NCBI GenBank assembly: GCA_050250895.1 | Contig: JBFWNU010000001.1 | Coordinates: 2,214,210 to 2,278,209, forward strand | Direction: 5' to 3' | DNA: 64,000 nucleotides | Origin: Vulcanimicrobiota bacterium | GTDB taxonomy: Bacteria > Vulcanimicrobiota > Xenobia > Xenobiales > JADMJV01 | Part shown: positions 1,471 to 55,500 of the stretch, in pieces | Numbering within the stretch: position 1 is the first letter of the stretch | Layout of the letters: each line of letters begins with the position of its first letter | Position numbers and translations under genes: made by a program | Notes under the pieces: model-generated | The model's input: only the letters and a program-made list of their open reading frames with translations | What the model was told of the DNA's origin: nothing | The model's database searches: none

Positions 1471-2169
1471 GTGAACGACGTGCTCCGATTTATGCGGCTC
1501 GAAGGGGGCCATGAGGGGGTTCCGGCCCTCTGGGAGGTCACCCTGGCGCTGGTGGTCACGCTGGCTTGTTCGTGCCTGATCGCCATGGTCTATCGGCGCA
1601 CCCACCGCACCCCGGGCTATTCCCAGTCCTATGTGCAATCGATGGTGCTGACCAGTCTGGTGACCTCGATGATCATGATCGTCATTGGCTCGAATCTGGC
1701 CCGAGCCTTCTCGTTGCTGGGCGCGCTCTCCATCATTCGCTTTCGTAACGCCATCAAAGAGACGCGCGATGTCGGCTTTATCTTCTTTTCCATGGCCGTC
1801 GCCATGGCCAGCGGGACCCGATTTTACGGCGTGGCCGTGCTGGGCACCATCTTCATCTGCACGACCATGCTGATTTTCGACGCCATCGGGTTCGGAGCCA
1901 GCCAGGTTCAGGCGGAACGGTTGCTCAAGCTCCAGACCCCTCCCGACCTCGACCTCAAGGCCGCCGTCCACCCTGTGCTCGAGAAGCACTTCGACGCCTA
2001 TACCCTGGTGGTGGTCGAGACGCTGCGCGACGGGGTGCTGTTAGAGGCCGTTTATTCGGTCAAGCCGCGCGGCGAGCTCGAGCCCAACACGGTGATCGCC
2101 GACCTGCAGGCCGTCAACGAGAAACTCAAAGTGGCCTATTTCTACGGCTACAACGCAGATGCTCCCTAG
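1471..2169 (+). CDS. DUF4956-family membrane protein
   Basis: 232 aa with N-terminal transmembrane segments and the conserved LSIIRFRNAIKETRD / FIFFSMAVAMASG motifs. DUF4956 proteins typically accompany VTC-domain and CotH proteins. Confidence 0.6.
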   Translation: MNDVLRFMRLEGGHEGVPALWEVTLALVVTLACSCLIAMVYRRTHRTPGYSQSYVQSMVLTSLVTSMIMIVIGSNLARAFSLLGALSIIRFRNAIKETRDVGFIFFSMAVAMASGTRFYGVAVLGTIFICTTMLIFDAIGFGASQVQAERLLKLQTPPDLDLKAAVHPVLEKHFDAYTLVVVETLRDGVLLEAVYSVKPRGELEPNTVIADLQAVNEKLKVAYFYGYNADAP

Positions 2170-2854
2170 GTTCGAGCTGAAGTTTCTCATCTCTCACGCG
2201 CAAAAAGAGCGCATTCGCGAGCTGGTGACCGAGATTCTCAAGCCCGACCCGTACGGCCACCTGGGGGTGTACCGGGTGACCAGCCTCTATTACGACACTC
2301 CCGGGTTGACCGCCTATTGGGAGAAGGTCGACGGGGTGGCCTCGCGACGAAAGTATCGGCTCAGGTTCTATGGGCCGTTGGAGTCGGCCGATACCTTCTT
2401 CATGGAGATCAAAGGCCGCGAGGATCGCGTGGTTCTCAAGCAGCGCTCGCGCCTCGAGCCGGCGGCGGCTCGTCGCAAACTGGTGGAACTCGAGTCGCTG
2501 GCCGGACTCACCAGTCAGGCGCTCGACCACCTGGATACGGCCGAGGCAGTCGAGCTCGAGGGCTATCGCCAGCAGCTGCGACCGGCGGCCACGGTCACTT
2601 ACCTGCGCGAGGCCTGGATCGGCATCCTCGAAAGCCGCCTGCGATTGACGTTTGATCAGTTTTGTCAGGGCGGTCCGCCGGGCAGCTTTAATTTTCGCGA
2701 AGCGGCCGCCCTGCACGCTCCCAGCCAATCGATCATGGAGGTCAAGTTCGACCACCAGATTCCCCGCTGGCTCAGCGACCGGATCACCGAGGTCGAGGCG
2801 CGCCCGGTCCGCTTCTCGAAATACGCCAACGCCGTCGAGATGCTAAAGTCGTGA
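2159..2854 (+). CDS. VTC-domain (polyphosphate polymerase-like / CYTH-like) protein
   Basis: 231 aa. The N-terminal FELKFLIS...YRVTSLYYDTP...RRKYRLRFYGP block is characteristic of the VTC domain (PF09359). It overlaps the upstream DUF4956 gene stop, suggesting an operon. Confidence 0.6.
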   Translation: MLPRFELKFLISHAQKERIRELVTEILKPDPYGHLGVYRVTSLYYDTPGLTAYWEKVDGVASRRKYRLRFYGPLESADTFFMEIKGREDRVVLKQRSRLEPAAARRKLVELESLAGLTSQALDHLDTAEAVELEGYRQQLRPAATVTYLREAWIGILESRLRLTFDQFCQGGPPGSFNFREAAALHAPSQSIMEVKFDHQIPRWLSDRITEVEARPVRFSKYANAVEMLKS

Positions 2855-4383
2855 GAGGCATCTGGCTGCGCGGCGAGGGGCGAGGACGGCTCATCCCCTG
2901 GTCTCACCTGGTGCTGGGTCTTACCTTTCCCGTGGCGCTGGTGCTTTTTCTGTTGCTGGCAGTCCAACACCAGGAGCCGATCTTCGAGTGGCTGATTTAC
3001 GCACGGCGGGGTCATCCGGTGGGCTATCAGGTGGCCCGGGAGATCTTTCAAGAGCGGGTCAGCAGCAGCTTCTACAACGTGCTGGTCAACCCTCAGACCC
3101 CGACCCAAGGCGAGCTTTCCGTGTTGCGGCTCTTTTCTGGCGACACCACGCTCGAGGCCCTGACCGAAGACCCCGACCGCGAGCCCAGACCGTATCTGCC
3201 TGCCTATCTGGTCGAGAACGGCCATCTTAAAGGCTGCCACATCGCGCTGCGGGGTTTTGGCCACTGGCATCACGCTCCCGAAAAGCCGTCGCTACGGGTC
3301 AAGGTGAAGCGTTCGGAGGTGGGCCAGGGAGCCCGCTTTCAGGACCTTTCTCGCCCCGAAGGTCCGTTGGCGTTGGGCAACTGGCTGCCCGAACAGATCG
3401 GCCAGAAATATGACCTGTTGGGCCAGCGGACCGACCATGTGGCCCTCTTTTTCAACCATCGCTACCTGGGAGTCTATGACCGCGGTTATCGAGCCGGAGA
3501 CGAATTGGCAGCCCGCCTCGAGCGACCAGGCGGAACCTTCTTCAAAGGCGACATCGTGGGGCCCGGTGGCTCGGTGGGCGCGCCCGGCCGCAGCCTCTGG
3601 ACCGGCTTGCAAGAGTGGAAGGTGCTTGGACCCGACCGGCCCGAGATCCGCCGGGCTTTCGAACACCTGCTGGCCGAACTGGCTCAGGACCGGGTGCCCA
3701 CCCAGCTCGACCTGGAAGCGATGGCGCGCTGGTCGGCTCTGATGGCCTTCTTTGGCAGCGCCCATGCCGACGCGTTCCATAATCAGGTCTTCTTTTACGA
3801 CCCCCAGCGCCAACTCTTCGAGCCGGTCGTCTGGGATGTCAACGGTCTGGGCATTCAACTGCCCGCGGATGCCCCGCTCGATCTGGCTCCCGGCCCGCTC
3901 GAAGCCCGCCTGATGCGCGAGCCCGCCTGGCGGGCCCGTCGAGCCGAGTTGCTCTTCGAGCTGCTCGAGGACCCCGCGGTGGATTCGACCGTCGAGGCCG
4001 AACTCGAACGGCTGCGCCCGTGGTTGAGCGCCGACCCCGGATTGAGCCGGCTCGAGCGAACTCCGGTCGGAGTCAACCGGCTACGCCGCTACTCTACCGG
4101 AGAGTTGCCTCGCCTCGAGGCCGAAACGCGCTGGTGGCTGGTGACCCGCCGCCAGGTGGTCAGGAACTACCTCGAGCAAGCCACCGTAGCTCGGAGCAAA
4201 GACCGGGTTTGGGTCGACGGCAACGTGCCGGTGCGGGCCGGCCAGCGCTTGCTCTATCCGGGCCTGGCCTCGCAACGGGTGCCTTATCGCTTCAACCTGG
4301 CCAGGCTGGCTTCCGAGGCCCGAGCCTATCAGGCCGAAGGACCGTTCTTCAACGCCATCACCGGTCAGCCCATCGATCCTTAG
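2851..4383 (+). CDS. CotH kinase-family protein
   Basis: 510 aa. It overlaps the VTC gene stop by 4 nt. It has an N-terminal TM/signal segment, and its length, composition and genomic association with VTC+DUF4956 fit the CotH family. Assignment rests on family memory, not a computed alignment. Confidence 0.45.
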   Translation: MRGIWLRGEGRGRLIPWSHLVLGLTFPVALVLFLLLAVQHQEPIFEWLIYARRGHPVGYQVAREIFQERVSSSFYNVLVNPQTPTQGELSVLRLFSGDTTLEALTEDPDREPRPYLPAYLVENGHLKGCHIALRGFGHWHHAPEKPSLRVKVKRSEVGQGARFQDLSRPEGPLALGNWLPEQIGQKYDLLGQRTDHVALFFNHRYLGVYDRGYRAGDELAARLERPGGTFFKGDIVGPGGSVGAPGRSLWTGLQEWKVLGPDRPEIRRAFEHLLAELAQDRVPTQLDLEAMARWSALMAFFGSAHADAFHNQVFFYDPQRQLFEPVVWDVNGLGIQLPADAPLDLAPGPLEARLMREPAWRARRAELLFELLEDPAVDSTVEAELERLRPWLSADPGLSRLERTPVGVNRLRRYSTGELPRLEAETRWWLVTRRQVVRNYLEQATVARSKDRVWVDGNVPVRAGQRLLYPGLASQRVPYRFNLARLASEARAYQAEGPFFNAITGQPIDP

Positions 4384-49331: not shown

Positions 49332-50199
49332 AAGCGGCTTCGTGGCCCTGGTCGGCAAGCCCAATGTGGGGAAGTCGACTCTGATCAACCGTCTGGTGGG
49401 AACCAAGGTCGCCATCACCTCCTCCAAGCCCCAAACGACCCGGCATCGGGTGCTGGGCGTCATGCACGGTCAGGAGTATCAGATCGTGCTGGTGGACACT
49501 CCCGGACTCATGCAACCGCGCCACGCCCTCGGCCGCAAGATGGAGAAATGGGCCCTCGAAGAGAGTCGCGAGGCGGACCTGGTGTTGTTCCTGGTCGAGT
49601 TGACGCACGCCCCCACCGCCGAGGACCGCTTTGCGGCCGAGCATCTGGCCCCGCTGGGAGACCGGGTCTGGTTGGTGATGAACAAGCTCGACCGGTGCAA
49701 GGACGAACAGGTGGCCGAGCAGTACCAGGCGTTGGGCGGCTATCCGCGCAGCTTCCAGGTTTCCGCCCTCGAGGGGCAGGGGTTGGAACAGCTTACCCAG
49801 GCTTTGTGCGAGGTCTTGCCCGAAGGCGACCCCTTTTTCCCCCCCGACCAGGTGACCGACCAGAATCGGGCTCTGTTGGCCAGCGAGGTGATCCGCGAGA
49901 AGGTCCTGCATCTGACCCGCCAGGAGATTCCTCACGCCGTGGCCGTGGTGGTCGACGAGCTGCGCCCCGCCGACAAACCCGACATGCTGTATCTGAGCGC
50001 CTATCTCTATGTAGAGCGGCCCAATCAAAAACGCATCCTGATCGGAAAGAACGGCCAGTTGCTAAAGTCCATCGGCGCCGAAGCCAGACTCGAACTCGAG
50101 CAACTATGGGGGCAACGCGTCTTTCTCGAGCTATGGGTCAAAGTGAAGGAAGGCTGGCGCGACCGCGAGGACTGGCTCCGCTCCCTCGGCTATGAATAA
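49306..50199 (+). CDS. era: GTPase Era
   Basis: G1 GKPNVGKST, TTR, DTPG, NKLD and a C-terminal KH domain. Confidence 0.85.
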   Translation: MIGWNKMYRSGFVALVGKPNVGKSTLINRLVGTKVAITSSKPQTTRHRVLGVMHGQEYQIVLVDTPGLMQPRHALGRKMEKWALEESREADLVLFLVELTHAPTAEDRFAAEHLAPLGDRVWLVMNKLDRCKDEQVAEQYQALGGYPRSFQVSALEGQGLEQLTQALCEVLPEGDPFFPPDQVTDQNRALLASEVIREKVLHLTRQEIPHAVAVVVDELRPADKPDMLYLSAYLYVERPNQKRILIGKNGQLLKSIGAEARLELEQLWGQRVFLELWVKVKEGWRDREDWLRSLGYE

Positions 50200-50640
50200 G
50201 TCGGCCCAGCGGCGCGGCGCGAAGCGCCGTAGGGAATGACGAGAAGGCCGCATCCTGTGCAGTTTCAGCTAGTGGTCATACCTTCTCGTCGTTCCCGTAG
50301 AGCCGCGGCCGGGCCGACGCCCATACGAAGTCGGCCCAGCGGCGCGGCGCGAAGCGCCGTAGGGAATGACGAGAAGGCCGCATCCTGTGCAGTTTCAGCT
50401 AGTGGTCATACCTTCTCGTCGTTCCCGTAGAGCCGCGGCCGGGCCGACGCCCATACGAAGTCGGCCCAGCGGCGCGGCGCGAAGCGCCGTAGGGAATGAC
50501 GAGAAGGCCGCATCCTGTGCAGTTTCAGCTAGTGGTCATACCTTCTCGTCGTTCCCTTAGAGCCGCGGCCGGGCCGACGCCCATACGAAGTCGGCCCAGC
50601 GGCGCGGCGCGAAGCGCCGTAGAGTGGCAGCGGCCGAGCC
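50200..50640. repeat. 130-bp tandem repeat, 3.3 copies, each containing a 16-bp-stem hairpin
   Basis: Copies start at 50200, 50330, 50460 and 50590 (partial), with 1 mismatch among the full copies. Each has the inverted repeat GGGAATGACGAGAAGG...(33 nt)...CCTTCTCGTCGTTCCC and a second IR, GCCGGGCCGAC/GTCGGCCCAGC, spanning the unit junction. Confidence 0.85.
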
Positions 50641-50718
50641 AAAGGAACCCCTGATCGAGCCGTCGAACGGTCGGGCCTCGGGAGTGCCACTCCCCTAAAG
50701 ATTGAAAGGCGACAAGCA

Positions 50719-51024
50719 ATGATCACTACTTACGAAGCCCTGGGCATGATTGAAACCAAAGGCCTGGTGGCGATGATTGAAGCTGCCGATGCTATGGTCA
50801 AGGCGGCCAACGTGAAACTGATCGGTTACGAGAAAATCGGAGCCGGCTATGTGACCGCTCTGGTTCGCGGCGATGTGGCTGCCGTGCGTGCGGCTACCGA
50901 TGCCGGCGCTTCTGCCGCCCGCAAAGTGGGCGAGCTGATCGCCGTCCACGTTATTCCCCGTCCCCACAAGGATCTCGACGATGTGCTACCGATCGCCCCT
51001 CCCCGTGAGAAAGCCGGGAAGTAG
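50719..51024 (+). CDS. BMC-H hexameric microcompartment shell protein (PduA/EutM family)
   Basis: [30 protein letters not shown]...[17 protein letters not shown] is the canonical BMC domain. Confidence 0.85.
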
Positions 51025-51043
51025 TCCAGGCTCGAGCCATTAG

Positions 51044-51781
51044 ATGGACCCCGCTCTGATCGATACGATCACCGAGCTGGTCCTGCGCGAACTGCAAGGC
51101 AATCAGCCGGCGGGGCCGCCCGCCCCTCCCAAACAGGGCAAGAAGGTGCTCTTGTGCCCGGGGCCGGGCGCCGGCAGCTCGGCGATCTGGCAGGGGCTGG
51201 CTCAGCTCTCGGACATTGGCTGGCAAGCCGTGGCCTGGCCCGGCTTTGACACTCATCGCCTCGAGCGCGCGCTGGGCCGCAAGGTGCCGACTTCGGACCC
51301 TCCCACCTGCTGGGAACAGCTGGTTCAAGGGGTAGAGGCGGTCGTCTTGCCCAGCCTCGATCTGGGTGGGTTGGCCAGCCTGGCCTTGCTGCTGACCGAC
51401 CGCCCCCCGGCCGGGGCCGGCGTGGCCGGGATCGTGCTCGGCAAGCCGGTGCTGGCCCTCAACGAGGGGCTGGAGCGCTATCGACGCCACTCGGCTCGCT
51501 TGCCGGGCGGGTTTTTAGATGTCTTCGAGCGTCACTATCGAGGGGCCGAGAGTATGGGCGTCACTTTTTTAGGGGTGGGGGAGCTGGCCGGGGCTCTGGC
51601 CGGTCCGGGGGCCAAGAAGGTCACCGCCACCTCGACCGGGCGCGACGTGGTCACTCTGGAAGACCTCGAGGCGGTGCGGCGGCGTGGCCAGACGGTGCTG
51701 GAAGTGTCGGCCGGGGCCATCGTCACCCCGCTGGCCAGCCAGGCCGCGCGAGAGATGGGGATTGAGGTGAAGACTCGATGA
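51044..51781 (+). CDS. BMC-associated protein of unknown function with encapsulation-peptide-like N-terminus
   Basis: The N-terminal amphipathic helix ([18 protein letters not shown]), then a P/G linker, resembles the N-termini of the downstream AldDH and DeoC. The C-terminus ends [24 protein letters not shown]. Confidence 0.4.
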
Positions 51782-52083
51782 TCTTGGCGAAAGTCGTGGG
51801 TACAGTGGTCTGCACCCAAAAAGAGCCGCGCCTCGACGGGCTGAAGTTGCAGCTGGTCTGCCCGCTTTCGCTAGCCGATATGGCCGTCGACGGCAAGCCG
51901 CTGGTAGCCGTCGACGCCGTCGGGGCCGGACCCGGCGAGGTGGTTCTGGTGGCCGCCGGCAGTTCGGCGCGCCAGACCGAGGCGACCCTCAACACCCCGA
52001 CCGATGCCGTCATTATGGGCATCGTCGATACAGTCGAAATGGAAGGCAAGACCGTCTTCCAGAAACATCGGGCCAAGGAGTAG
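51778..52083 (+). CDS. BMC-P pentameric vertex protein (EutN/CcmL/PduN family), copy 1
   Basis: [27 protein letters not shown]...[22 protein letters not shown] is the EutN/CcmL fold signature. Confidence 0.8.
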
Positions 52084-52086
52084 GCA

Positions 52087-53523
52087 ATGGATATCGACCG
52101 CGACGTCATTCGCAAGATTGTGGAAGAGGTGGTGCGCCAACAGATCGGCTCAGGCTCGGCGCCACGCTCGGTCGAAGTTCCGGTGGCCAGTGGTCGCTAC
52201 GGAATCTTCACTTCGGCCGACGATGCGGTGGCCGCAGCCGGCGAGAGCTACAAAGCCTGGTTCTCGATGAGTCTCGAGACCAAAGCTGCCTGTGTCCAGG
52301 CGATGCGAGACGTTTCTCTGGCCCAGGCCCGTCCCATGGCCGAATTGGCTCATGCCGAGACCGGTCTCGGTAGGGTCGAGGACAAAGTCAACAAGAATCT
52401 GCTCCAGGTGGCCAAGACGCCCGGACTAGAGGATGTCAAGCCTCAGGTGTTTACCGGAGACCGCGGTCTGACCCTGGTCGAGAAGGCTCCCTTCGGGGTG
52501 ATCTGCTCGGTCACGCCCACCACCAATCCGGTGGCGACCATCATCAACAACTCGATTTCGATGGTGAGCGGCGGGAACGCGGTGGTCTTCAATCCCCACC
52601 CGCGCGCCAAAGGGTGCTGCAATCAGATGATTCAGCTGCTCAACCAGGCCATCCACAAGGCCGGGGGCCCTCCCACCCTGCTCACTTCCGTGGCCGAGCC
52701 TACCATCGAGACCTCGCAGGCCCTGATGAAGCACAAGGGAGTGCGTTGCTTGGTGGTGACCGGCGGTCCGGGCGTGGTGGCCCAGGCCATGGCCAGTGGC
52801 AAGAAAACGATCGCGGCCGGTCCCGGCAATCCGCCGGTGGTCGTCGACGAGACGGCCGACCTGCGCCAGGCTGCCCGCGATACGGTGGCCGGCTCGTCGT
52901 TCGACAACAACGTGATGTGCACGTGCGAGAAAGAAGTCTTCATCGTCGATAGCGTCTTTCGCGAGTTCAAAGAGCATATGCTCAATAACGGCTGCTACGA
53001 ACTCACTCCTCGCCAGCTCGACGAGCTCACCCGGGTCATCTTCCAACCACCGCCGGTGGGCAGCACCAAGACGGTGCTCAACCGTGACCTCATCGGTCAG
53101 CACGCCAGCGACATCGCCCGCACCATCGGGCTTGACCTGCCCCGCGACACGCGGCTTTTGATCGCCGAGACTCCCTTCGAGCATCCGCTGGTGCTCAAAG
53201 AGCAGATGATGCCGGTGCTGCCGCTGGTTCGTTGTCGTGATGTCAACGAGGCCATCGAGCGCGCCGTCCAGGCCGAGGGCGGGCGCTATCACACGGCCGT
53301 GATGCATTCGCGCAACATCGAGAACCTGTCGCGCATGGCCCGGGTGGTCAACGCCAACATCTTCATCAAGAACGGGCCCAACTACGCAGGTCTGGGCTTC
53401 GGAGGCGAAGGCTTTACCACCATGACCATCGCCGGCACCACCGGTGAAGGGGTGACCTCGGCTCGCACCTTCACTCGCGAGCGCCGCTGCGCCCTCATCG
53501 ACTATTTCAGGATTCTAGGCTAG
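52087..53523 (+). CDS. CoA-acylating aldehyde dehydrogenase (PduP/EutE family)
   Basis: FGVICSVTPTTNPVATIINNSISMVSGGNAVVFNPHP, plus the catalytic Cys region and an N-terminal encapsulation-peptide-like helix (MDIDRDVIRKIVEEVVRQQ). Confidence 0.8.
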   Translation: MDIDRDVIRKIVEEVVRQQIGSGSAPRSVEVPVASGRYGIFTSADDAVAAAGESYKAWFSMSLETKAACVQAMRDVSLAQARPMAELAHAETGLGRVEDKVNKNLLQVAKTPGLEDVKPQVFTGDRGLTLVEKAPFGVICSVTPTTNPVATIINNSISMVSGGNAVVFNPHPRAKGCCNQMIQLLNQAIHKAGGPPTLLTSVAEPTIETSQALMKHKGVRCLVVTGGPGVVAQAMASGKKTIAAGPGNPPVVVDETADLRQAARDTVAGSSFDNNVMCTCEKEVFIVDSVFREFKEHMLNNGCYELTPRQLDELTRVIFQPPPVGSTKTVLNRDLIGQHASDIARTIGLDLPRDTRLLIAETPFEHPLVLKEQMMPVLPLVRCRDVNEAIERAVQAEGGRYHTAVMHSRNIENLSRMARVVNANIFIKNGPNYAGLGFGGEGFTTMTIAGTTGEGVTSARTFTRERRCALIDYFRILG

Positions 53524-53532
53524 GAGGTCCCC

Positions 53533-53994
53533 ATGCGGGTTGTAATCGGTAGCGATCACGGAGGCTACGAGCTCAAGAACGAGCTGGCCGGGCTGATTCG
53601 AGAGCTGGGCCACGAACTGATCGATTTCGGCACCCACGGACCCGACCCGGTCGACTATCCCGATTTCGCCTTACTGGTGGGCAAGGCCGTGGCCAACGAC
53701 CCCGATCACACCCTCGGCATCGTGGTCGATGGGGCCGGCTGCGGCAGCGCCATCACCGCCAATAAAGTGCCGGGGGTGCGTGCGGCTGCCTGCTACTGCA
53801 CGGCCACGGCCAAGAACTCTCGCGAGCACAACGACGCCAATGTCTTGACCCTGGGTAGCAAGATTACCGGGTCCGAGGTGGCCAAAGATATCGTGCGCAC
53901 CTGGCTCGGCACCCCTTTTGCCGGCGGGCGCCACTCGCGCCGAGTCGAGAAAGTGCTCTTGATCGAGCGACGTTTTGCCAAGGAGGCGCCGTAG
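53533..53994 (+). CDS. rpiB: RpiB/LacA/LacB-family sugar-phosphate isomerase
   Basis: MRVVIGSDHGGYELK ... GAGCGSAITANK ... the ribose-5-phosphate isomerase B fold. Confidence 0.8.
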   Translation: MRVVIGSDHGGYELKNELAGLIRELGHELIDFGTHGPDPVDYPDFALLVGKAVANDPDHTLGIVVDGAGCGSAITANKVPGVRAAACYCTATAKNSREHNDANVLTLGSKITGSEVAKDIVRTWLGTPFAGGRHSRRVEKVLLIERRFAKEAP

Positions 53995-54261
53995 TTGTTT
54001 CTGGGTCGGGTTTGCGGGACGGTGGTGGCCACCCATCGAGTAGACAACCTCGACGGAGCGACCTTTCGTGTGGTGGTGCCTGTGAATCACGACGGCTCGC
54101 CTTACGGTAAACCCTTCGTGGCTGTCGACAACGTCTCGGCCATGACCGGCGATCTGGTCTATCTGGTCAAGGGCAAAGAGGCCATCATCCCCTGGAAGCG
54201 CTCGGATATGGCGCCCATTGATGCCGCCATCGTGGGGTTGGTGGATGGGATGGATATCTGA
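53995..54261 (+). CDS. BMC-P vertex protein, copy 2
   Basis: MFLGRVCGTVVATHRVDNLDGATFRVVVPV...VAVDNVSAMTGDLVYLVKG. Confidence 0.75.
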   Translation: MFLGRVCGTVVATHRVDNLDGATFRVVVPVNHDGSPYGKPFVAVDNVSAMTGDLVYLVKGKEAIIPWKRSDMAPIDAAIVGLVDGMDI

Positions 54262-54554
54262 TGCTCTATGCACGGATTTTAGGAAGTTTGTGGGCCACCG
54301 CTCAGGTGGCGGGCTTTGAGGGTAGATCTCTTAAGCTGATCGAGCCTGTCGATGCGCGGACCGGTAAGGGCGCGGGGGACACGCTGCTGGCGGTCGACCT
54401 GGTCGGGGCGCGCAAGGGTGACCACGTTCTGGTCGTCTACGAGGGCAGCTCGTCGCGTCTGGCCATGGGCAGTCAGACGACGCCCTGCGAGGCGATCGTG
54501 GTCGGCATCGTGGATCGGCTCGATTTGGAAAGTGAGGAATCAGGTGGACATTGA
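54261..54554 (+). CDS. BMC-P vertex protein, copy 3
   Basis: [30 protein letters not shown]...[24 protein letters not shown]. Its start overlaps the copy-2 stop by 1 nt. Confidence 0.75.
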
Positions 54555-55500
54555 AGCGATTGTAGCCAGAATCACCAGGGAAGTGGTGGAAGAACTCCAG
54601 CGCCCGCAGGCGGCCTCGTCCCCCTCTGCCGAGGTGGACCGCACCGCCCCTCCAGGACGTCTGCGCGTGGCCGAGGGCTCGTCTTCGAACGGTTCAGGCA
54701 AGGTCTGCATGGAGCGTCTCACCGGCGAGTGCGCCGGAGTTGGCTGCTGTGCTCAGTTGCTTCCCGAGCGGGTGCGGGCCGTGATCGAGTCCGGGGCCGA
54801 CCGGGTGGGCAATTCCCCCGGGGGGGTGGTGGACGGGGCCGACATCGCCGCCCGTATCGACCACACTTTGCTCAAAGCCGACGCTACCCGCCAGGAAGTC
54901 CTCGAGCTGTGCGACGAGGCCCGCACCCACCGGTTTGCCTCGGTCTGCATCAACCCGGCTTTCGTGGCCACGGCCGCCGACGCTCTGCGGGGCACCGGGG
55001 TCAAAGTTTGCACCGTCGTGGGCTTTCCGCTGGGAGCCACCACGACCCTCACGAAAGTCACCGAGACCCGAGATGCGCTCGCCAACGGGGCCGACGAGAT
55101 CGACATGGTGATCAACATCGGAGCCCTCAAGAACAACCAGGATGACCTGGTCGAATCCGATATCCGCGAGGTGGTGGCTGCCGCCGGCGGGCGCATCACC
55201 AAAACGATTTTCGAGACGGCCATCCTCTCGGACGACGAAGTGGTGAGGGCCTGCCTGTTGGCCAAGCGGGCCGGAGCAGATTTCGTCAAGACCTCGACCG
55301 GATTCGGTCCAGGCGGAGCCACTGTGCATCACGTGGCTTTGATGCGCCAGACGGTGGGACGCTCCATGGGAGTCAAAGCCTCGGGCGGGGTGCGCGATCT
55401 CGAGACGGCCCGCCAGATGATCGAGGCGGGAGCCACCCGAATCGGGGCCAGTGCTTCCGTCAAGATCGTGCGCGGTGAGCAAGGCAGCGGCAACTACTGA
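54544..55500 (+). CDS. deoC: Deoxyribose-phosphate aldolase (DeoC) with N-terminal encapsulation-peptide-like extension
   Basis: DeoC core ([11 protein letters not shown]...[10 protein letters not shown]...[14 protein letters not shown]...KTSTGF). A GTG start at 54544 is preceded by AGGAAT and begins [19 protein letters not shown]. The 5' part of the track ORF is out-of-frame overlap with BMC-P copy 3. Confidence 0.75.

Follow-up and report, generated by a model that had tools for sequence, protein, structure and literature searches.

A compact locus for a probable sugar-phosphate-utilizing microcompartment in a Vulcanimicrobiota (Eremiobacterota) bacterium

Sugar-phosphate-utilizing (SPU) loci, of which more than 280 from 26 phyla have already been catalogued, are among the most widespread classes of metabolosomes. 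Their definition includes genes for deoxyribose-phosphate aldolase (DERA, DeoC), a ribose-5-phosphate isomerase homolog (RPI) and an aldehyde dehydrogenase (AldDH), together with a triplet of bacterial microcompartment (BMC) vertex paralogs (BMC-P), two of which are adjacent (Sutter 2021 Supplementary Data 2). At least one BMC-Ts protein is present in each SPU subtype, and the subtypes without phosphotransacylase (PTAC) typically have BMC-Tdp, a possible exit for acetyl-CoA (Dwyer, Sutter, Kerfeld 2024, PMC11585597). Here, we analyzed a 64,000-nucleotide (nt) stretch, hereafter the window, of the genome of a Vulcanimicrobiota (Eremiobacterota) bacterium (contig JBFWNU010000001.1), which carries an SPU-type locus at positions 50719–55500 of the + strand. 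We put the probability that this locus is an operon for an SPU-type metabolosome at about 0.72. It is best described as an uncatalogued, compact SPU variant typical of Eremiobacterota, within a class that is itself known and partly characterized. The initial annotation of this DNA, which was made from the sequence, regarded SPU compartments as experimentally uncharacterized, a view that is now outdated. DERA and RPI of an SPU6 locus were purified and studied in vitro; DERA was active and formed a ~1:1 complex with RPI, and RPI was nearly inactive on ribose-5-phosphate (Dwyer 2024, PMC11585597). For SPU-like compartments of archaea, shell assembly and encapsulation-peptide-dependent recruitment of cargo to shell particles were reported (2025 preprint PMC12747264). 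A native bacterial SPU organelle has not yet been demonstrated, either seen or purified.

The locus and its relation to described SPU subtypes

Protein families were assigned with Pfam and NCBIfam hidden Markov models (HMMs), and NCBIfam scores were judged against the curated cut-offs. The initial annotation had listed eight contiguous + strand genes, for one BMC-H, three BMC-P, an acylating AldDH, RpiB, DeoC and a protein of 245 amino acids (aa) that it called unknown, and this list was borne out gene for gene. Seven of the eight products have Pfam matches, the exception being the 245-aa protein. The HMM typing of the shell proteins that had been proposed as a check gave PF00936 for the BMC-H gene and PF03319 for the three BMC-P genes. 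The genes are as follows:

50719–51024, + strand: BMC-H hexameric shell protein, 101 aa (PF00936, E 2.3e-30; EutM-type NF012018, 142.6 bits against a cut-off of 133)
51044–51781, + strand: 245-aa accessory protein, distant eut_hyp relative (no Pfam match)
51778–52083, + strand: BMC-P pentameric vertex protein, paralog 1, 101 aa (PF03319, E 7.1e-29)
52087–53523, + strand: EutE/PduP-type CoA-acylating AldDH, 478 aa (PF00171; NF011927, 638.8 bits against 403)
53533–53994, + strand: RpiB-like protein, 153 aa (PF02502, E 3e-50; TIGR01120, 146.2 bits against 138.65)
53995–54261, + strand: BMC-P paralog 2, 88 aa, TTG start with AGGAGG upstream (PF03319, E 1.5e-24)
54261–54554, + strand: BMC-P paralog 3, 97 aa (PF03319, E 1e-20)
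54544–55500, + strand: DERA (DeoC), 318 aa, GTG start (PF01791; TIGR00126, 279.8 bits against 117.3)

All eight open reading frames (ORFs) are intact, the intergenic distances range from -11 to +19 nt, and ribosome-binding sites are present. Promoter and terminator scans of the locus gave nothing convincing, including no convincing internal terminator, and this, together with the tight packing of the genes, fits a single operon. The GC content of the locus is that of its surroundings and is uniform across the region.

The same gene order (BMC-H, 245-aa protein, BMC-P, AldDH, RpiB, BMC-P, BMC-P, DERA) is kept in the related loci L001 and L003–L010, in L003 as far as BMC-P3, where the contig ends, and the operon lies between era and recO in L001 and L004–L010. 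The named records among these relatives are metagenome-assembled genomes (MAGs) labeled Eremiobacterota, Vulcanimicrobiota, ‘Armatimonadetes’, ‘Burkholderiales’ or just ‘bacterium’. Identities to the relatives are 89–96% for BMC-H (12 related loci), 69–75% for AldDH, 66–75% for DERA, 66–70% for RpiB, 56–69% for the three BMC-P proteins and 39–49% for the 245-aa protein, and the products of the flanking housekeeping genes reach 54–62% (era) and 30–47% (recO). Because the cargo and shell proteins are more conserved than the products of era and recO, the operon appears to be under stronger constraint than its neighbors and to form a functional unit rather than a relic; as judged by these identities, it is under strong purifying selection. 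The gap between AldDH and RpiB is the variable part of the layout. In most relatives it holds an extra gene of ~440 aa (L004, 3630–4961; L005–L010), the product of which resembles an integral membrane protein with no significant Pfam match. The same gap contains a different ORF of 543 aa with a weak PMT_2 match in L012 and a 922-aa spermine-synthase-like gene on the opposite strand in L001, and no gene is inserted there in the window and in L003.

At the same era–recO site, another layout is found in two sister loci, L015 and L011, the latter from Candidatus Xenobia, a class that belongs to the same phylum. They share with the window era, BMC-H, the eut_hyp-like gene and AldDH, followed farther on by RpiB, DERA and recO, as well as a four-Cys extension of DERA. 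However, they carry a PduS homolog (Complex1_51K, SLBB, Fer4 and RnfC_N domains), then a tandem-domain BMC-T and a second BMC-H (L011, 12405–14293; L015, 12149–14197), and neither locus contains a BMC-P gene, whereas the clade of the window has the opposite set. These PduS/BMC-T-bearing loci provide a natural comparison for what those parts do.

In common with SPU1–SPU7 (Axen 2014; Sutter 2021; Dwyer 2024), the locus has DERA (PF01791), RPI (PF02502) and AldDH genes that adjoin shell genes and a BMC-P triplet, in which the paralogs P2 and P3 are adjacent, as are those of the SPU ‘grey/orange’ pair. The SPU assignment of the initial annotation is therefore in agreement with the published definition. 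N-terminal encapsulation peptides on AldDH and DERA and an Asp in place of the catalytic Cys of RPI are further shared traits; in the described subtypes the AldDH peptide is N-terminal in all but SPU6. PTAC and alcohol dehydrogenase (ADH) are likewise missing from SPU2, SPU3 and SPU6. The locus differs from the described ones in that any BMC-T or PduS is missing from both the locus and the window, and in that its chromosomal site between era and recO is fixed. The subtype SPU4, mostly from Firmicutes, is the only one described with a eut_hyp-type, flavoprotein-related protein that bears an N-terminal encapsulation peptide, and it also resembles the locus in its BMC-P triplet and in having no consistent BMC-T in the main locus. 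However, SPU4 has PTAC, triosephosphate isomerase (TPI) and two BMC-H, none of which was found here, where BMC-H is single. The SPU4-like loci L027, L039, L047, L058 and L060 differ further by two DERA genes and a BMC-T, and their eut_hyp-like proteins are only ~25–40% identical over partial lengths. SPU2 and SPU3 have a similarly minimal enzyme set but possess both BMC-Ts and BMC-Tdp. By its gene content, the locus therefore does not fully fit any of the seven described subtypes.

Outside bacteria, the SPU-like microcompartments of Hodarchaeales (PMC12747264) share the DERA and AldDH core and the association of a flavoprotein domain with DERA. However, the flavoprotein is fused to DERA in the archaea and is a separate protein here, and the archaeal operon contains MNdh (PduS) with BMC-Ts as well as PTAC, which are absent here. 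An assignment to the ‘PVM-like’ loci, suggested by the combination of a BMC-P triplet and DeoC, was dropped, as PVM-like loci use a class II aldolase (Axen 2014, Sutter 2021). No mention of the host phylum Eremiobacterota was found in the text or supplements of the SPU catalogue or in the text of Dwyer 2024, and a literature search found no paper on BMCs in this phylum. With four genes for the shell and four for cargo or accessory proteins, the Eremiobacterota form is the smallest self-contained set of SPU genes found in this analysis, and as a small construct it would lend itself to heterologous reconstitution. As a system it is not new in kind, and the picture of what SPU compartments do is unchanged by it.

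Cargo proteins, accessory protein and shell

N-terminal amphipathic helices with a hh-xx-hh pattern are present on AldDH, DERA and the 245-aa protein, with hydrophobic moments (muH) of 0.57–0.83. In AldDH the encapsulation peptide comprises residues ~3–20, with the pattern hh-xx-hh-xx-hh at residues 7–16 (muH 0.69). Encapsulation peptides on AldDH and DeoC, on which the initial annotation had made its microcompartment reading depend, are thus recognizable as N-terminal amphipathic helices on both enzymes.

The RpiB-like protein passes the TIGR01120 cut-off but lacks the catalytic Cys. Asp66 occupies the position of this Cys in the solved RpiB structure 3he8, the His of the HND motif (SREHND) is kept, and the same Asp is found in the RpiB-like proteins of seven related loci in which the motif was read. 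An Asp in place of the catalytic Cys66, with the His retained, has been reported for all SPU RPIs (Dwyer 2024, PMC11585597). Its score places the protein in the fold family, but with these residues it is unlikely to be an active ribose-5-phosphate isomerase. It has no N-terminal encapsulation peptide, because the AldDH gene ends (53523) only 9 nt before its ATG, and at the other end the Pfam domain leaves 12 C-terminal residues. Since SPU6 DERA and RPI form a ~1:1 complex and that RPI is nearly inactive, the RpiB-like protein would most simply be carried in with DERA; by this analogy it is likely a partner of DERA rather than an active isomerase.

For DERA, the most likely start is GTG at 54544 and not the first ATG of the ORF at 54352. 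GAGGA is located 5 nt upstream of the GTG, the gene beginning there overlaps the BMC-P3 stop by 11 nt, and the protein opens with a helix that is kept in the relatives; the first 64 codons of the ORF from 54352 overlap BMC-P3. Residues 100–318 form the catalytic TIM barrel, which aligns to solved DERAs with an E-value of 1e-81, and the motifs KTSTG (with the Schiff-base lysine), GVKASGG and ADEID, conserved in the solved enzymes, are intact. The preceding extension of 99 residues (54544–54840) consists of a helix (residues 1–20, muH 0.83), a Pro/Ala-rich linker (~21–50) and a Cys motif (~52–94), and is conserved in L001 and L004–L010. In L001 it lies upstream of a DERA annotated as 223 aa. N-terminal extensions of SPU DERAs tend to escape automatic annotation (Dwyer 2024, PMC11585597).

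The Cys motif, GKVC-x7-C-x-G-[VT]-G-C-C followed by GADRVGN, is invariant in the DERAs of the Eremiobacterota clade. In L011, L015, L035 and L046 it takes the form C-x6-7-C-x-G-C-G-x-C followed by GA[DEQ]RI, and the motif also occurs in DERAs of MAGs labeled Clostridia/Bacillota and Planctomycetota. Among the latter, L045 has four Cys residues with looser spacing before GADRIG, and the extract of L041 shows the first three Cys only. The four-Cys motif was not found in the DERA extensions of the SPU4-like loci. Its conservation makes this element a possible metal or Fe-S site; cysteines in the DERA extension are not discussed in the main text of Dwyer 2024 (PMC11585597). A homolog search with the extension alone returned only two matches, the search being limited by its word index and by the fact that such extensions are mostly unannotated. 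An AlphaFold2 (AF2) model of full-length DERA from a three-sequence alignment had a mean predicted local distance difference test (pLDDT) score of 51 with the extension unresolved, and the model was not used.

The 245-aa protein is not an orphan, as the term unknown would imply, but a distant BMC accessory protein of the eut_hyp type. It matches TIGR02536 (eut_hyp) over residues 101–244 with 32.5 bits (E 6.4e-8; the curated cut-off is 152.6), and all 32 aligned members of its family match the same model below threshold, the best with an E-value of 9e-14. On these scores it is a distant relative, and not a member, of TIGR02536. Its 42 close relatives are all from Eremiobacterota where named. 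When a profile of the family was run against 1.84 billion representative sequences, 1169 proteins were matched at E ≤ 1e-3, and the best 150 of these are mostly ~250 aa long and mostly aligned beginning with the N-terminal helix. In different phyla, the gene nearly always lies between BMC-H and BMC-P genes. In the AF2 model (pLDDT 78.7), residues 3–19 form a helix, and a disordered linker connects it to an alpha/beta domain (33–185), after which come a second linker and a small domain (200–245). The modeled alpha/beta domain has an HFCD/UbiX-like flavoprotein fold, with DmrB reductase, UbiX and EpiD/PPC-decarboxylases among its top structural neighbors; the solved relatives with this fold form oligomers. 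In sequence, a Pfam scan gave no PF02441 match for the protein, and a search of PDB sequences with the family profile gave nothing significant.

The C-terminal domain (~200–245), which we refer to as the TPLA module, contains the invariant pattern GRDV.T.ED...G.I.TPLA. It weakly matches EutQ in 24 of the 32 family members (profile positions 3–46 in the members tabulated), and six of the 32 match PduM, in the member tabulated at the C-terminal end of PduM. The pair of helix and TPLA module reappears as an N-terminal extension of RPI in SPU loci of Planctomycetota (L041, 1789–2604; L045, 628–1380), in the order helix, TPLA module, RpiB domain. In Gemmatimonadota (L024, L036), the module forms a protein of its own, ~130 aa long, which carries a C-terminal amphipathic helix and is encoded next to BMC-T. 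This distribution suggests that it is a mobile BMC-targeting module.

Because of its encapsulation helix, its EutQ-like module, the recurrence of both as an RPI extension and the BMC-H/BMC-P flanking of its gene, the 245-aa protein is probably a shell–cargo linker. EutQ of Salmonella is required for encapsulation, and it binds the shell through its N-terminal helices H1/H2 and cargo peptides through H3/H4 (PMC12487888). Both proteins pair a BMC-binding or BMC-binding-like part with a globular domain. However, the globular domain is a cupin acetate kinase in EutQ and a flavoprotein fold here, the shell-binding module is N-terminal in EutQ and C-terminal here, and the similarity is weak and at the level of sequence. 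The EutQ-like linker role of the eut_hyp-type protein and the role of the Cys motif in the DERA extension are both testable.

The BMC-H gene is the only one in the window, and no second PF00936-like ORF or further shell-protein ORF was found anywhere in it. BMC-P1 is distant from P2 and P3 (E ~1e-12), and the three paralogs are mutually distant (E 1e-9 to 1e-13), but each has close orthologs in the relatives (61–68% identical for P1 and 56–69% for P3). As read from these genes, the shell is supplied by one BMC-H and three anciently diverged BMC-P paralogs. This complete set in the operon of the clade could close a shell by itself.

Proposed pathway and alternative explanations

Based on the chemistry of DERA and of EutE/PduP-type enzymes and on the SPU literature, the parts list, targeting helices, DERA motifs and conservation described above can be combined into the following scheme. 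2-Deoxyribose-5-phosphate from the breakdown of DNA or nucleosides would pass into the compartment through the BMC-H pore and be cleaved by DERA into glyceraldehyde-3-phosphate plus acetaldehyde. The volatile and toxic acetaldehyde would be kept within the shell, where AldDH would oxidize it to acetyl-CoA, using CoA and NAD+. The RpiB-like protein would enter as a stoichiometric partner of DERA, as observed for SPU6 in vitro, and not as an isomerase. The 245-aa protein would act as a multivalent linker, with its N-terminal helix directed to the cargo core, the EutQ-like C-terminal module directed to the shell, and the flavoprotein-fold domain possibly mediating oligomerization.

Several points weigh against this interpretation. 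At least one BMC-T is expected in an SPU locus and none was found: BMC-T, PduS, PTAC and ADH are all missing from the 64-kb window and from ±10 kb in six relatives (L005–L010), so the canonical model is not closable from this sequence. For the 245-aa protein, each match to EutQ or PduM is weak by itself (E 2e-3 to 0.08) and the match to eut_hyp is far under the curated cut-off. SPU6 RPI is nearly inactive and no reaction joins RPI to DERA, so the role given to RPI is a guess.

The window was covered by a Pfam scan of the 30 ORFs upstream of the locus and by matching the downstream genes to their annotated counterparts in L001, and no PTAC, ADH, PduS, TPI or nucleoside-catabolic gene was found in the parts scanned; the remaining genes are for chemotaxis and signaling, proteases, a type IV pilus and housekeeping. 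The initial annotation had noted that PTAC and ADH are not in the locus, and this now extends to the window in the parts scanned. Cofactor recycling is not encoded in the locus or window, but the absence of PTAC and ADH is usual in SPU2, SPU3 and SPU6; the unusual feature of the locus and window is the additional lack of BMC-T and PduS. NAD+ and CoA are most likely regenerated by genes elsewhere in the genome, in the form of satellite BMC-T, PduS or PTAC genes.

In its full form, this explanation holds that the locus is the main part of a split system, with BMC-T, PduS and/or a PduL-type PTAC at satellite sites in the 3.9-Mb genome, which would make it a conventional SPU metabolosome with ordinary cofactor recycling. 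Such an arrangement is a serious possibility, to which we give somewhat less than an even chance; it concerns the completeness of the locus and is compatible with an SPU-type metabolosome operon. According to the SPU literature, loci of the SPU and HO types commonly have satellites. L011 and L015 carry PduS and BMC-T without BMC-P, so their genomes must keep shell genes elsewhere, and the two complementary layouts at one site in one lineage argue that satellite loci exist in this group. However, no gene of the kind required lies within the 64 kb analyzed here or within ±10 kb in L005–L010, where shell genes other than those of the operon were also not found, and the single operon of the clade already holds the complete set of one BMC-H and three BMC-P.

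A more novel reading is a minimal SPU organelle of Eremiobacterota, built from one hexamer and three pentamers, with trimers, PduS, PTAC and ADH missing genome-wide and NAD+ and CoA regenerated by a route of another kind, for which the flavoprotein-fold linker protein and the four-Cys element on DERA are candidates. We consider such an organelle unlikely; if real, it would be a new answer to the cofactor problem of metabolosomes.

The reactions of DERA and AldDH are both reversible, and the compartment could in principle run in a reductive, condensing direction, in which acetyl-CoA would be reduced to acetaldehyde as a sink for NADH, DERA would condense the acetaldehyde with glyceraldehyde-3-phosphate to deoxyribose-5-phosphate, and the RpiB-like protein would then process the sugar phosphate. 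A model of this kind (Nobu et al. 2016) is described in PMC6281690 for DERA/RPI BMC loci of Atribacteria. For the locus studied here we regard this direction as improbable: its demand for cofactor exchange would equal that of the forward model, the catalytic Cys is missing from the RpiB-like protein, the SPU6 homolog of which is nearly inactive, nothing in the window points to a fermentative NADH-sink context, and the present view of the field favors catabolism of deoxyribose-5-phosphate.

A role of the 245-aa protein as the missing redox module, in which it would bind flavin and re-oxidize NADH in the shell in place of PduS/PduT, is comparably improbable. The closest structural neighbors of its alpha/beta domain are flavoproteins, PduS/T are lacking in the loci of this lineage, and the association of such a domain with DERA recurs, as a fusion, in the archaeal SPU-like compartments (PMC12747264). 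However, L011 and L015 have the 245-aa family alongside PduS and BMC-T, and many loci of Firmicutes have it alongside BMC-T, so that it is not a substitute for them. In HFCD/UbiX proteins, the loop after strand 1 is rich in Gly, Ser and Thr and holds the phosphate of flavin mononucleotide. At the corresponding place the 245-aa protein has CPGPG and the family consensus has PAPA, a Pro-rich loop that is not conserved. In addition, PF02441 is not matched in sequence, and no exit route for electrons (an Fe-S BMC-T) is present. Finally, a locus in decay that has lost the ability to build an organelle might be suspected from the lack of BMC-T and of all cofactor-recycling genes and from the loss of the catalytic Cys in the RpiB-like protein, but it is scarcely credible given eight intact, tightly coupled ORFs with ribosome-binding sites, a gene order kept in at least nine other genomes, shell and cargo proteins that are better conserved than era and recO, and a Cys-to-Asp change that is a class-wide SPU trait (PMC11585597).

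The upstream region and other features of the window

Upstream of the operon, a short motif is conserved:

50641–50668, + strand: conserved upstream motif AAAGGAACCCCT...GTCGAAC, with GGAAC at 50644–50648, a 15-nt spacer and CGAAC at 50664–50668

The motif, AAAGGAACC(C/G)CT followed by CGAAC, is located ~50 nt before the BMC-H start and aligns in L001, L003 and L005–L010, which with the window makes nine loci. This conservation makes it a candidate for a promoter or operator that belongs to the operon itself. The layout of GGAAC and CGAAC separated by 15 nt resembles a promoter of the extracytoplasmic function (ECF) sigma type, and a putative promoter of this type would give the operon its own regulation.

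The motif is placed downstream of a tandem repeat (50198–50622), in which a 130-bp unit is present in 3.3 copies of 99–100% identity and which fills the spacer between the era stop and the BMC operon; in the relatives this spacer measures only ~50–130 bp. Each repeat unit has a very stable predicted RNA fold of -73.3 kcal/mol (z -6.7) around a 16-bp hairpin, GGGAAUGACGAGAAGG...CCUUCUCGUCGUUCCC. The window contains no further copy, and an exact-match scan of metagenome contigs found none either. A riboswitch or other known RNA was considered and rejected, as there was no hit above an Rfam gathering threshold and the E-value matches were at chance level only. Duplication of a small palindromic insertion may have produced the repeat, or it may be an artefact of the assembly.

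Elsewhere in the window, positions 1471–4383 hold a cluster of DUF4956, VTC-domain and CotH-kinase-like genes that is unrelated to the BMC locus. The gene at 30785–33217 on the - strand encodes an 810-aa vault-like bacterial protein with a Major Vault Protein shoulder domain (PF11978, E 1.7e-26). Between this gene and a FabH-like gene, at 33287–33930, lies a dense array of ~27-nt direct repeats (GGGAGCCCGTCGCTTCGCTTGGGAGAG and variants, at least 11 copies), which are arranged in higher-order repeats of ~190 nt.

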